Shown here: positions 52,214 to 55,924 of the stretch, piece by piece
Position numbering within the stretch: the stretch's first letter is position 1
Layout: each line of letters starts with the position of its first letter
Source: Escherichia coli
Lineage (GTDB): Bacteria; Pseudomonadota; Gammaproteobacteria; Enterobacterales; Enterobacteriaceae
DNA: 64,000 nt
Direction: 5' to 3' (one strand)
NCBI RefSeq assembly: GCF_003334405.1
Contig: NZ_QOWM01000001.1
Notes under the pieces: model-generated
Told to the model about the DNA's origin: nothing
The model's input: the letters and a program-made list of their open reading frames with translations, nothing else
Databases searched by the model: none
Program-made: the position numbers and the translations under genes

Positions 52214-54067
52214 ATGAGACGATTTCTGACGACGCTGATGATACTCCTGGTCGTGCTGGTGGCCGGGTTATCTGCGTTAGTGTTGCTGGTGAATCCGAAT
52301 GATTTCCGCGACTATATGGTCAAGCAAGTTGCTGCACGTAGCGGTTATCAATTGCAGCTCGACGGGCCACTGCGTTGGCACGTCTGGCCGCAGCTTAGTA
52401 TCCTCTCCGGGCGAATGTCTCTCACCGCCCAGGGCGCAAGCCAGCCACTGGTTCGCGCCGACAACATGCGTCTGGACGTGGCGCTTTTACCACTACTGAG
52501 TCATCAACTGAGCGTTAAGCAGGTGATGCTAAAAGGGGCAGTGATCCAACTGACGCCGCAGACGGAAGCGGTGCGCAGTGAAGACGCTCCGGTTGCACCG
52601 CGCGACAATACCTTGCCGGATCTGTCAGACGATCGCGGATGGTCGTTTGATATATCCAGTCTTAAGGTGGCGGACAGCGTGCTGGTGTTCCAGCATGAAG
52701 ATGACGAGCAGGTGACAATCCGCAATATCCGCCTGCAAATGGAACAAGATCCCCAACATCGTGGCTCATTTGAGTTCTCCGGGCGGGTTAATCGCGATCA
52801 GCGCGATCTCACAATATCCCTTAACGGTACGGTAGATGCTTCTGATTATCCGCATGATTTAACGGCGGCTATTGAACAAATTAACTGGCAGTTGCAGGGT
52901 GCCGATTTACCAAAACAAGGTATTCAGGGGCAGGGGAGTTTCCAGGCCCAGTGGCAGGAGTCACATAAACGCCTTTCATTTAACCAAATCAGCTTGACCG
53001 CCAATGACAGTACGCTGAGCGGGCAAGCACAGGTCACGCTGACAGAGAAACCGGAATGGCAGCTGAGACTGCAATTCCCGCAACTGAATCTTGACAACCT
53101 CATCCCGCTTAATGAAACCGCGAATGGTGAAAACGGTGCCGCGCAGCAGGGGCAGAGCCAATCAACGTTGCCGCGCCCGGTCATTTCTTCGCGTATTGAT
53201 GAACCGGCCTATCAGGGACTGCAAGGCTTTACGGCTGATATTTTGTTGCAGGCCAGTAACGTGCGCTGGCGCGGAATGAATTTTACAGATGTTGCCACGC
53301 AAATGACCAACAAGTCGGGTTTGCTGGAAATTACTCAACTGCAGGGCAAACTTAACGGTGGACAGGTTTCACTGCCGGGCACGCTGGACGCGACATCAAT
53401 AAATCCGCGGATAAACTTCCAGCCACGGCTGGAAAACGTTGAGATTGGTACCATTCTGAAGGCGTTTAACTATCCGATTTCGTTGACCGGAAAAATGTCA
53501 CTGGCTGGTGATTTCTCCGGTGCTGACATAGATGCCGACGCATTCCGCCACAACTGGCAAGGACAGGCACATGTCGAAATGACCGACACGCGCATGGAAG
53601 GGATGAACTTCCAGCAGATGATTCAGCAAGCGGTAGAGCGTAATGGCGGTGATGTGAAGGCCGCTGAAAACTTTGATAACGTGACGCGGCTTGACCGCTT
53701 TACCACCGATTTGACGTTGAAGGATGGCGTCGTGACGTTAAACGACATGCAAGGTCAATCGCCTGTGCTGGCGCTGACAGGGGAAGGCATGTTGAATCTG
53801 GCAGATCAAACCTGCGACACCCAGTTTGATATTCGGGTCGTGGGTGGCTGGAACGGGGAAAGCAAACTGATTGATTTCCTCAAAGAAACGCCAGTACCGC
53901 TGCGGGTTTATGGCAACTGGCAGCAACTCAATTACAGTCTGCAAGTGGATCAGTTACTGCGCAAACATCTACAGGACGAAGCGAAACGTCGCCTGAATGA
54001 CTGGGCCGAGCGGAATAAAGATTCCCGCAATGGCAAAGATGTGAAGAAGTTGCTGGAGAAGATGTAG
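52214..54067 (+). CDS. asmA: AsmA-family outer-membrane assembly protein
   Basis: 617 aa; N-terminal membrane anchor MRRFLTTLMILLVVLVAGLSALVLL. Confidence 0.93.
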   Translation: MRRFLTTLMILLVVLVAGLSALVLLVNPNDFRDYMVKQVAARSGYQLQLDGPLRWHVWPQLSILSGRMSLTAQGASQPLVRADNMRLDVALLPLLSHQLSVKQVMLKGAVIQLTPQTEAVRSEDAPVAPRDNTLPDLSDDRGWSFDISSLKVADSVLVFQHEDDEQVTIRNIRLQMEQDPQHRGSFEFSGRVNRDQRDLTISLNGTVDASDYPHDLTAAIEQINWQLQGADLPKQGIQGQGSFQAQWQESHKRLSFNQISLTANDSTLSGQAQVTLTEKPEWQLRLQFPQLNLDNLIPLNETANGENGAAQQGQSQSTLPRPVISSRIDEPAYQGLQGFTADILLQASNVRWRGMNFTDVATQMTNKSGLLEITQLQGKLNGGQVSLPGTLDATSINPRINFQPRLENVEIGTILKAFNYPISLTGKMSLAGDFSGADIDADAFRHNWQGQAHVEMTDTRMEGMNFQQMIQQAVERNGGDVKAAENFDNVTRLDRFTTDLTLKDGVVTLNDMQGQSPVLALTGEGMLNLADQTCDTQFDIRVVGGWNGESKLIDFLKETPVPLRVYGNWQQLNYSLQVDQLLRKHLQDEAKRRLNDWAERNKDSRNGKDVKKLLEKM

Positions 54068-54087
54068 GTTACCAGGTGACCTGTCCT

Positions 54088-54125
54088 GTAGGCCTGATAA
54101 GACGCGTAAAGCGTCGCATCAGGCG
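54088..54125. repeat. REP element after asmA
   Basis: gtaggcctgataagacgcgtaaagcgtcgcatcaggcg. Confidence 0.75.
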
Positions 54126-54340
54126 TTCGCGGCGGCACCATTATATTCTGAATATGTAAGATCGAAGGCTGTTCCGTTCACTTGATGTTCCTCACTACTA
54201 TGGAACGCTCAAGCCGGTGAACGTGCCAGGGTGGCTCAATCGCCACCACCCTGGCAACCCGGGCTCCCGGCGGTAAATCGCCGCTGGCGCGGTTCCCTCA
54301 TCTTATTCCTTTCGGCTATCGGGTAAAATGACCGATACCA

Positions 54341-55924
54341 TCACACCTCGTACTTCAACTCGCCATCCTTATGCAGCGGAATAATCTGCACCTTCTGCAC
54401 GCGATGGCTTTCCACCTGCAACGTTTTAAGCAAATAATCCCCCACCTGAACTTCTTCGCCAGGTTTTGGAATACGCTGTAAATATTCCATCAACAGCCCG
54501 GCAATGGTGTGATATTCACGTTTTTCATCCAGCGGCAGCGGCACATATTGCACCAGATCTTCCAGCGGCATATGACCATTCGCCGTCCAGGAACCGTCCG
54601 CATTCTTCTGAATATCATGGCGGGCGTCGATCTCTTCCACTTCGTTCGGTAAGTTACCGGCAATGGTTTCAGTGACGTCACTTAATGTCACAATCCCTTC
54701 CACCGAGCCAAACTCATCCACCACAAAAGCAAAGTGTGTGCGGGCATTACGGAACTGCTCCAGGGCAGGTAACAACGGCAAGGTTTCCGGGAACACCAGC
54801 GGCTGGCGAATCAACACCCGCAGGTTGAGCGGTTCGCCGCGCAGTGACTGTTGTAGCAGGTCGATAACGTGAACAACACCGAGCAAATCTTCTGCGTCAT
54901 CACCGTCGGTAACCACCAGCCGCGTATGCTGATTTCGCTCCAGCAACTGGCGGATTTCTTCTTCCGGCGCGTTGAGATCGATATGCTCAATATCGTGGCG
55001 CGACGTCATAATGCTGCTGACAGTACGCTGGTTAAGATTAAGTACCCGCTCAATCATCCGCCGTTCCTGCGGATTAAAGATCTGCTGGTTACCATGATCG
55101 ACCAGCATGGACGCGGTTTCGGCGTCCAGTTCCGCATCTTCTTTTTGCCCGCTAAGCAGGCGCATTACCGCTTCGGTAGTCCGCTGGCGTAGCGTCTGGT
55201 TAGCGGAAAGAAAACGTCGCCGGTTAAAGATAGCCAACTGATTGAGCGCCTCGATCATCACCGAGAAACCAATGGCAGCGTACAGGTAGCCTTTCGGAAT
55301 GACGAAGCCGAAACCTTCTGCCACCAGGCTAAAGCCAATCATCAACAGGAAGCTTAAGCAGAGAATAACGATGGTCGGGTGGCTATTAACGAACTGGGTT
55401 AACGGCTTGCTGGCCATCAACATCAGGCTGATAGCGATAACCACGGCGGCCATCATGACCAGTAAATGGTCGACCATCCCGACGGCGGTAATCACTGAGT
55501 CGAGTGAGAAAATGGCGTCCAGCACCACAATTTGCGTCACCACGCCCCAGAACTTCGCACCTTTGCGTTGTGTGGGATTATTGCTGTCTTTCCCTTCCAG
55601 CCGTTCGTTCAGCTCCATCGTGGCTTTGAACAACAGGAAGAAACCACCAAACAGCATGATTAAGTCGCGGGCGCTAAAGGTAAACGAGCGGAAGCTGAAC
55701 AGCGGTTGAGTCAGGGTGACCAGCCAGGAGATTGACGCCAGCAGTAACAGGCGCATTAACATCGCCAGCAGCAGCCCGGTAACCCGTGCGCGGTCGCGCT
55801 GCTTCGGCGGTAGTTTTTCGGCGAGGATGGCAATAAAGACCAGGTTATCAATGCCGAGGACCAGTTCGATCACAATCAGCGTGATTAACCCGGCCCAGAT
55901 AGACGGATCGGCAATCCATTCCAT
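54341..55924 (-). CDS. yegH: TerC-family membrane protein with CBS and CorC/HlyC domains
   Basis: ORF 54341..55990; product from [35 protein letters not shown]... (TerC-type TM region) with C-terminal CBS pair. Confidence 0.9.

Follow-up and report, generated by a model that had tools for sequence, protein, structure and literature searches.

The convergent genes asmA and yegH of Escherichia coli are separated by an intergenic region that holds a repetitive extragenic palindromic (REP) element and a GC-rich hairpin. We analysed this hairpin within a stretch of 64,000 nucleotides of contig NZ_QOWM01000001.1 (assembly GCF_003334405.1), referred to here as the window. The asmA open reading frame (ORF) ends at position 54067 and the yegH ORF, on the minus strand, ends at 54341, in agreement with the convergent placement given in the initial annotation; the REP reported there was located at ~54085–54125, between the asmA stop and a sequence resembling the TRIP1/RRS (Replication Risk Sequence) repeat. 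Comparison with related sequences shows that the hairpin, termed hairpin B below, is the conserved central stem-loop of a truncated and decayed copy of this repeat in the asmA/yegH intergenic region. The structure given in the initial annotation is upheld; what was missed there is that the hairpin does not stand alone and is one stem-loop of a TRIP1/RRS relic.

The inverted repeat itself, GCCAGGGTGG-CTCAATCGCCA-CCACCCTGGC, can be read directly at 54225–54255. A perfect 10-bp stem had been claimed, and the stem is indeed perfect, but its arms are 11 bp long when the outer T-A pair is added. On the minus strand the predicted RNA fold gains a further G-U pair, giving 12 bp and a 9-nt loop. Hairpin B lies 85 nt from the end of the yegH ORF. 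Its pattern occurs once in the window with up to three mismatches tolerated, and 0/100 dinucleotide shuffles of the window contain it. Folded as RNA, the 51-nt segment with hairpin B reaches −24.1 kcal/mol on the plus strand (z = −2.0) and −26.3 kcal/mol on the minus strand (z = −2.7), and 141 nt around it fold into three hairpins in a row (z = −5.2 on the plus strand, −3.4 on the minus strand). Taken alone, hairpin B is ordinary.

The earlier statement that no U-run follows the stem holds for both strands, neither of which has a T-run at this place. Compared with the features of an intrinsic terminator, hairpin B has the GC-rich stem and lacks both the short loop (3–8 nt) and the U-tract. A consensus scan of the hairpin B region found 0 terminator-like sites on either strand, ruling out hairpin B as a lone terminator, and with its 11-nt loop and missing U-tract it is not a canonical intrinsic terminator, as had been proposed. 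An Rfam scan of the window region at E values up to 10 returned REP-like and chance matches only, with no known RNA family at hairpin B, and the hairpin falls outside the REP consensus, no REP-like sequence being found inside it.

Searching for the palindrome elsewhere in the genome, a check suggested together with the original description, reveals a repeat family once related rather than identical sequences are sought. With 96 nt around hairpin B as the blastn query against 5,426 complete E. coli genomes, a second locus was found between proX and ygaY at 83–85% identity, and the two copies can be aligned over ~160 nt, well beyond hairpin B. A family profile (nhmmer) matches the window over a similar length (~160 nt aligned; Table 1), so that homology to the family extends past the hairpin; the match falls short of a full-length TRIP1/RRS element, which comprises a core of 222–273 bp with distal hairpins. 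The asmA/yegH relic is the only family copy that the profile finds in the 64-kb window.

In K-12, the same profile identifies intact copies at ~914996–915290 (sequence L132, 2497–2791) and ~2229121–2229400 (sequence L133, 2622–2901), with E values of ~1e-64. TRIP1a and TRIP1c were reported at K-12 915016–915281 and 2229122–2229394, respectively (Li et al. 2024, PMC10888264), and the Replication Risk Sequences were reported near lysO and dusC (Pham, Wood, Dunbar, Cox, Goodman; PMC10592627). Because the K-12 profile coordinates coincide with TRIP1a/TRIP1c and with the RRS at lysO/dusC, the family can be assigned to TRIP1/RRS, and the intact K-12 copies are TRIP1a and TRIP1c, that is, the RRS near lysO and dusC. 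By blastn, the family is detectable at three places in K-12, of ~295, 280 and 161 nt. Five TRIP1 loci have been published, aqpZ/ybjE, putP/ycdN, yohI/yohG, alx/sstT and copA/ybaP (Li et al. 2024, PMC10888264), and neither asmA/yegH nor proX/ygaY is mentioned in that study or in Pham et al. (PMC10592627). The asmA/yegH element is thus an unlisted, more divergent and truncated member of the family.

The relic shares ~160 homologous nt with other TRIP1/RRS elements, together with the hairpin order A-B-C and the blocks GTGAACG, AAATCGCCGCT and CGGCTAYCGGGT, and like them it is GC-rich, intergenic and downstream of a gene. It resembles TRIP1b, published as a partial copy, in being partial with an internal deletion. 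Unlike TRIP1a and TRIP1c, it belongs to a more divergent subfamily and lacks hairpins D and E as well as the exact G-quadruplex (G4) motif, and its orientation is opposite to that of TRIP1c. The part that remains carries hairpins A to C and continues up to CGGCTATCGGGTA, with the element's ‘plus’ orientation on the window plus strand; hairpins D and E, with their CATCCNTG loops, and the distal arm are gone. Another known repeat, RSA (a 150/151-bp unit with six K-12 copies), seems not to fit the family in length and copy number, the two features compared. The relic also departs from an arrangement ~650 kb either side of dif, as it lies at 2.1395 Mb in K-12, compared with 0.915 Mb for TRIP1a and 2.229 Mb for TRIP1c; with dif at ~1.59 Mb, it lies ~550 kb from dif rather than ~650 kb.

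To sample the family without bias, a single genome of each species was scanned with a pattern lying outside hairpin B, AAATCGCCGCTN{1,2}CRCGGTNCNNTC, which returned at least 120 stretches. Among the matches listed are copies from Escherichia, Enterobacter, Silvania, Lelliottia, Kluyvera, Citrobacter, Pseudescherichia and other genera, and nearly every one of these carries a hairpin B homologue at the same place. An alignment-free survey of 131 copies found 53 distinct hairpin B stems, the stem being perfect in 110 copies, with a median of 11 Watson-Crick pairs compared with 5 in shuffled windows.

For covariation analysis, 63 copies mutually less than 90% identical were aligned with MAFFT (alignment A3), and RNAalifold recovered hairpins A and B from this alignment. 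Pairing is retained in 96.7% of cells, compared with 83.8% in column shuffles (0/500 shuffles reach the observed value) and 34–50% when the partners are slid by 1–3 columns, and double-sided changes occur in 136 cells compared with 34 expected; these statistics are to be read with the caveats that the structure was derived from the alignment on which it was tested, and that relatedness by descent inflates the comparison with shuffles. In hairpin B, 95.4% of cells are paired and seven of nine pairs show compensatory changes, for example CG 39 / UA 20, CG 39 / AU 12 / UA 10, and GC 19 / UA 16 / AU 9 / CG 6. Hairpin A (columns 28–34/73–79) is paired in 98.4% of cells, with double-sided changes in three pairs. 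The hairpins D and E of intact copies also covary (22 and 19 distinct stems), and on these stems two CATCCNTG-type loops are found in 95/135 copies at a fixed spacing of 27–29 nt. Hairpin C is invariant in sequence across the family, which makes covariation uninformative for it either way.

Wobble pairs are rare and balanced: the 373 pairs of hairpins D and E include 345 Watson-Crick, nine G.T and four A.C pairs, and in hairpins A and B each wobble type makes up ~1% of cells. The wobble pairs therefore point to neither RNA strand. This near-exclusive Watson-Crick pairing would fit a constraint on the DNA or on both transcripts. It had also been suggested that the hairpin could be a protein-binding palindrome. 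Because the stem sequence changes freely across the family while complementarity is retained, recognition by a sequence-specific protein is unlikely.

Some irregularities were seen among the hairpin B homologues. The same T.C mismatch (GCCATGG... opposite ...CCCTGGC) recurs in seven copies from different genomes (L017, L030, L038, L040, L041, L076 and L078), and the most variable pair of the hairpin (A3 columns 88/106) adjoins a duplicated CCN motif in the loop that permits an alternative pairing register. In Enterobacter sp. MGH 24, three copies (L046, L048 and L049) share a junction inside the hairpin B loop, with unrelated sequence (...GGTTTAGGGGTTCAGTGC) substituted for hairpin A and hairpin B's 5′ arm; such copies are a chimeric subfamily or else the result of a further insertion at the hairpin.

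In E. coli, the region between asmA and yegH is polymorphic, with five kinds of allele, one of which is the form shared by the window and K-12. A long allele, present in E2348/69 and also in TUM12368, carries an additional 178 bp; another has a different deletion that begins directly after hairpin B; ATCC 25922 has the REP only; and in some alleles a toxin-antitoxin cassette (RelE/ParE with a helix-turn-helix partner) replaces the REP and the element wholly or partly. The extra 178 bp of the long allele are homologous to the proX-ygaY copy and to further copies, and because of this homology the long form is ancestral, with the window form derived from it by deletion between two GGGTA repeats. 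With the long form as blastn query, relatives turn up in each of the 5,426 E. coli genomes, at a median of 3 and a maximum of 11 places, which include the dusC-yohP and aqpZ-lysO intergenic regions; the identity of the long form to the TRIP1a/c-type loci is 76–81% over the shared part. The 46-nt hairpin segment is present in 4,466/5,426 genomes, 2,929 of which are identical to the window. Between E. coli paralogues, differences in the hairpin B stem are compensated (GGTGG/CCACC, GGAGG/CCTCC, GGCGG/CCGCC and CAAGGGAGG/CCTCCCTTG).

Transcript ends at the hairpin are available from Term-seq of K-12 MG1655, in which two 3′ ends are classed as ‘orphan’: 2139566(−), with 42362.8 reads in LB at OD 0.4 and 31838.4 in M63, and 2139607(+), with 2740, 2875 and 4207 reads in three conditions (Adams et al. 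2021, Supplementary file 1). Hairpin B is contained in the printed sequences of both. The 3′ end is the 51st base of each 61-nt string, as checked on the row of the mog terminator, and K-12 coordinates were converted to window coordinates via the asmA stop codon, the intergenic region being 273 nt long in both. The two ends lie on opposite strands, the asmA-sense end 4 nt and the yegH-sense end 5 nt beyond the stem. The case named in the initial annotation as a refutation, that transcripts neither reach the hairpin nor end at it, thus does not apply. An RNA-stabilising 3′ structure, as put forward in the initial annotation, is therefore in keeping with the K-12 transcript ends, and the 3′-end data support this reading rather than that of an intrinsic terminator.

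A Rho-dependent termination region was moreover reported in the asmA sense at K-12 2139476(−), with coverage changes of 123 to 22 (no bicyclomycin) and 128 to 176 (bicyclomycin added), a Rho score of 7.69 and a p value of 1.1e-18 (Supplementary file 2 of Adams et al. 2021). Its peak lies ~90 nt past hairpin B in the asmA sense, with coarse resolution, the score being computed from 800-nt windows.

Table 1 Features of the asmA/yegH intergenic region in window coordinates.
Feature	Position	Strand	Basis and remarks
Truncated, divergent TRIP1/RRS-family relic	54164..54324	+	161 bp; nhmmer family profile, HMM 7-167, E = 9.4e-44; paralogue alignments
Hairpin B	54224..54256	.	Perfect 11-bp arms 54224-54234 and 54246-54256, 11-nt loop CTCAATCGCCA; repeat finder, pattern scan, RNA fold
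RNA 3′ end, asmA sense	54260	+	K-12 2139566(−); 4 nt past hairpin B stem
RNA 3′ end, yegH sense	54219	-	K-12 2139607(+); 5 nt past hairpin B stem on minus strand
Rho termination region peak, asmA sense	54350	+	K-12 2139476(−); inside yegH 3′ end, antisense
Hairpin A	54175..54223	.	CGTTCAC (54175-54181) pairs with GTGAACG (54217-54223), ~35 nt enclosed; RNA fold and family covariation
Hairpin C (predicted only)	54268..54283	.	CGGCG-GTAAAT-CGCCG; RNA fold
Deletion junction	54321..54325	.	One GGGTA left of the two direct copies that flank the 178-bp segment in the long allele
REP	54085..54125	.	Left neighbour of the relic, outside the repeat; inverted repeat and sub-threshold naRNA4/REP-like Rfam match 54091-54163

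Two of the neighbouring features differ between alleles or copies. In intact copies, the AAATCGCC of hairpin C pairs, as one arm, with a distal GGCGATTT; this distal partner is deleted in the window copy, as judged from long-form alignments and Rfam alignment blocks. The stem of the adjoining REP is longer (GTAGGCC...GGCCTAC) in strains that are without the repeat, such as those with the ATCC 25922 allele.

The most informative copies with respect to mobility are those of Enterobacter. Enterobacter hormaechei DSM 14563 (L055–L069) has at least 16 near-identical copies of ~427 bp (e.g., L060, 8285–8713), which are bounded by the inverted repeats CTGAGGGWTCCCCA... and ...TGGGGAWCCCTCAG and inserted at the centre of a REP-like palindrome, CCCTCTCCC-NNN-GGGAGAGGG. 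Identical 9-bp flanks were counted by a strict script in 10/23 Enterobacter copies that have both terminal repeats, and the duplications are specific to the copy, including the rare variants CCCCAAGGGG and CCCACGGGG. The Enterobacter subfamily behaves as a MITE, a transposable element of the miniature inverted-repeat type. At least 16 near-identical copies with terminal repeats and 9–10-bp duplications also mean that the E. hormaechei subfamily has been recently active. The published statement that RRS are ‘conserved in position’ is qualified by these copies with transposon-like ends.

The ends of the element (CTGA..TCCCC, with a 9-bp duplication) may resemble IS10/IS4-type ends. No transposase partner was found under any match of the element terminus in a blastn search of 72,556 plasmids, where REP-like repeats alone were matched and which did not extend to the chromosomes of other genera. 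No phage matched the element, and carriage by plasmids was rejected, the plasmid matches being chromosome-like or mislabelled records. Among 93 copies with callable ORFs, the flanking genes are convergent in 59, tandem in 16 + 14 and divergent in 4, by crude ORF calling. The element prefers the 3′ ends of genes and has no orientation preference. In being non-coding and multi-copy, with terminal repeats and duplications in Enterobacter, in inserting at gene 3′ ends and in having both filled and empty alleles, the TRIP1/RRS family resembles MITEs such as ERIC/IRU. Unlike them, it has internal helices that covary across subfamilies and are unneeded for cut-and-paste transposition, and no transposase partner was found for it among plasmids.

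Taken as a whole, the data are best explained, and we consider this likely, by a decayed TRIP1/RRS hairpin that acts as a two-way structure defining and protecting RNA 3′ ends in the manner of a REP. The TRIP1/RRS repeat is a GC-rich chain of hairpins, ~270–430 bp long and dispersed in Enterobacteriaceae, which in at least one lineage spreads like a MITE into REP-like palindromes downstream of genes. One copy entered the convergent asmA/yegH intergenic region beside its REP, and the lineage of the window and K-12 then lost the distal 178 bp between two GGGTA repeats, leaving hairpins A, B and C. Both convergent genes are presumably transcribed into hairpin B. Transcripts of asmA would pass it and be stopped by Rho ~90 nt further on, after which 3′-to-5′ exonucleases may trim the RNA back to the base of the ~−24 kcal/mol stem; yegH transcripts would end 5 nt past the same stem on the other strand. 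A stabilising effect on the asmA and yegH mRNAs may follow, and this local 3′-end role could be incidental to a structure under selection for the biology of the element itself. The result would account for two unannotated ‘orphan’ 3′ ends in a K-12 data set that is widely used, and indicates how asmA and yegH transcripts may end without intrinsic terminators.

Several observations weigh against this explanation. The Term-seq data come from K-12 MG1655 rather than the window strain, and K-12 has a one-base difference in the loop (CTCAATCTCCA). A 3′ end beside a hairpin fits exonuclease trimming and hairpin-dependent termination alike and does not separate the two. No Rho region is listed in the yegH sense at the coordinates searched (Adams et al. 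2021), and no Term-seq 3′ ends were found at hairpin B of the intact K-12 copies, at 9149xx–9152xx or 22291xx–22292xx; the 3′-end role is therefore tied to transcription at the site and is not demonstrated for the family at large. At asmA/yegH, some stem changes are uncompensated, with GGGGG opposite CCACC in E2348/69 and E. albertii and GGTGG opposite CCCCC in strain SCPM-O-B-8794, and ~18% of E. coli genomes are without the hairpin B segment; together, these uncompensated lineages and absences speak for the hairpin being under weak selection here, or none. As to its origin, terminal inverted repeats and a target duplication are unrecognisable at the asmA/yegH relic, as they are at the proX-ygaY copy, and even in Enterobacter the 9–10-bp flank duplications reach ~17/23 copies only when judged by eye with boundary offsets of 1–2 nt allowed.

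The proposed role has precedents in other systems. As with the REP/BIME elements that protect 3′ ends, hairpin B is stable, GC-rich and extragenic, lies between convergent genes and has 3′ ends just past its stem, and at proX-ygaY and asmA-yegH the same sites are taken by REP pairs in some alleles and by TRIP1-like elements in others. In contrast to REPs, hairpin B is unrelated to the REP consensus, is single-copy per locus and lies within a longer composite element. With intrinsic terminators it shares a GC-rich stem and RNA 3′ ends a few nt downstream, while differing in having no U-tract, an 11-nt loop and Rho-sensitive read-through.

An alternative reading of the same locus starts from the published function of RRS. 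In a recent proposal, TRIP1/RRS elements serve as conditionally essential ‘topological relief valves’ that act via a G-quadruplex, and the activity was ascribed to 5′-GGGGGTGCAGGGGGCGGCGG-3′, a sequence that halts Pol I, II and IV (Pham et al., PMC10592627). This motif is the reverse complement of ...CCGCCGCCCCCTGCACCCCC... in TRIP1a and thus spans the end of the loop, the 3′ arm of hairpin B and the six bases that follow (ACCCCC). The homologous site in the window is 54241–54262, and another homologue lies at ~2520–2545 of sequence L010. The polymerase-blocking site of RRS therefore coincides with the homologue of the covarying hairpin B. The G4 motif itself is absent from the window, where the homologous minus-strand stretch reads GGGTTGCCAGGGTGGTGG. 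At this site, the G4Hunter maxima of 101 distinct family copies range from 0.70 to 3.30 (median 1.45), with values of at least 2.0 in 22/101; the RRS motif scores 2.30, the proX-ygaY copy, nearly identical to the window at this site, 1.10, and the window site ~1.15 by hand count. Because the hairpin is kept almost everywhere while G4Hunter varies widely, the feature conserved at the polymerase-blocking site is the hairpin and not the G4 potential.

The relic could be a working or weakly working RRS, in which hairpin B and the adjacent G-rich stretch fold in unwound DNA, stall the polymerase and seed a post-replication gap affecting topology, with the RNA 3′ ends being incidental. We regard this as doubtful. 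The homology of the published polymerase-blocking G4 to the hairpin site speaks for it, as do the near-exclusive Watson-Crick stems, which are expected of a DNA-level or two-strand constraint, and the finding that an inverted RRS still complements (Pham et al., PMC10592627). Deletants of both RRS survive only with a 2–3-fold amplification of 2,102,912–2,288,976 (insH7–insH8), for which no mechanism was offered (Pham et al., PMC10592627), and the intergenic region with the relic (window 54068–54340, K-12 2139486–2139758) falls inside this interval, which also favours an RRS function. Against it, gap formation (RecA/SSB loading in ssGAP-seq) was described at two sites only, lysO and dusC, and the authors' genome search for the G4 motif found no other site (Pham et al., PMC10592627); furthermore, the G4Hunter scores of the window and proX-ygaY copies are low beside that of the RRS motif, the distal half of the element is missing, the G-rich strand would be the leading-strand template, opposite to the natural RRS-dusC, and the hairpin segment is absent from ~18% of E. 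coli genomes. A speculative extension, to which we likewise give little credence, is that the relic is a cryptic weak RRS whose raised dose via the insH7–insH8 amplification rescues the double deletants; linked to it are the propositions that hairpin B, alone or with the G-rich strand, and not the G4 as such would be the blocking structure, and that RRS/TRIP1 might be domesticated members of a MITE family still active in Enterobacter.

The remaining explanations concern the RNA and the origin of the palindrome. Hairpin B might be a bidirectional U-less terminator working by pausing and release, perhaps helped by NusG or nearby Rho, which would account for 3′ ends 4–5 nt past a very stable, GC-rich stem on both strands and for the strong enrichment of the family between convergent genes. 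We consider this unlikely: a U-run is missing from both strands, the loop measures 11 nt, the consensus scan is empty, and asmA-sense transcription passes the hairpin under Rho inhibition (downstream coverage 22 -> 176). Ends a few nt past the stem are moreover the expected product of exonuclease trimming of Rho-terminated RNAs. Very unlikely, in our view, is that the region is or was a TwoAYGGAY-type RNA gene, with its two CANGGAYG loops binding a protein such as CsrA and hairpin B as an accessory stem. Intact family members do have two adjacent A-N-G-G-A-Y-loop hairpins with an AG linker and a long closing helix, the CATCCNTG-type loops being regularly spaced on covarying stems, and the published motif (RF01731) is likewise multi-copy in gamma-proteobacteria, with ACAUGGAUGU and ACAGGGACGU loops (Weinberg et al. 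2010). On the element minus strand, the adjacent D/E hairpins of long E. coli copies (e.g., L008, 1065–1208, and L132, 2537–2676) give Rfam matches of 31.5 and 30.6 bits (E = 0.027 and 0.006). The CANGGAYG loops resemble the CsrA/RsmA site consensus. These scores lie below the gathering threshold of 43 and are inconsistent across subfamilies, with neither three intact copies in a larger search nor an Enterobacter copy giving a match, and membership of the TwoAYGGAY family was rejected; Rfam holds no family for the TRIP1/RRS element. The window copy has wholly lost this part, including both loops, and shows no TwoAYGGAY match in its region at E up to 10; wobble pairs favour neither strand, element orientation is unrelated to flanking transcription, no Term-seq 3′ ends occur in the intact K-12 copies over the coordinates searched, and a CsrA omics table, which does not cover intergenic peaks, is negative for dusC, ybjE and asmA. 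Extremely unlikely is a palindrome that arose by chance, or was kept perfect without selection by template-switch mutation (‘quasipalindrome correction’). A single such event can turn an imperfect inverted repeat into a perfect one, and the duplicated CCN motif beside the most variable pair (A3 88/106) would allow slippage. Chance is excluded by the empty shuffles (0/100) and by a same-position hairpin in more than 100 homologous copies, and template switching alone leaves unexplained why helices A, D and E covary too and why stem length and position stay constant across subfamilies less than 90% identical.

Whichever of these roles applies to the relic, the family-wide findings bear on the relief-valve model. 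Unlisted divergent copies exist at proX/ygaY and at asmA/yegH, the latter in ~80% of E. coli genomes, K-12 among them; the proposed G4 coincides with a hairpin with extensively covarying pairing, its own potential not being conserved; Enterobacter genomes can hold at least 16 copies each, with transposon-like ends; and the K-12 relic lies inside the sole interval whose amplification permits double RRS deletion, which makes it a candidate explanation for that rescue.

Individual strains show further rearrangements at these loci. Toxin-antitoxin cassette alleles of asmA/yegH occur in strains FORC_044 (L007, 471–1089), in which yegH is annotated as frameshifted, and TUM12368 (L008, 471–918), in which a truncated toxin gene adjoins the long form of the TRIP1-like element. 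At yohP-dusC, the flanks of K-12 (L133, 2622–2901) and O157:H7 (L009, ~2430–2700) are 100% identical, and the TRIP1c element between them is inverted and 88.6% identical, which indicates inversion or replacement at one site. At proX-ygaY, K-12 (L134, 3126–3316) has two REPs exactly at the site of a ~340-bp TRIP1-like element that other strains carry between the same flanks (L002, 2818–3269); REP/BIME and TRIP1-like elements are alternative occupants of gene 3′ sites, here and at asmA-yegH in ATCC 25922. Lastly, a 300-kb record of E. coli MSB1_9D labelled as a ‘plasmid’ (LR890350; L011, 2762–2870) has a partial TRIP1-like copy with hairpins A and B only upstream of rnk, and carries the chromosome-like genes rna, rnk (Rfam rnk leader, 122.5 bits) and uspG.

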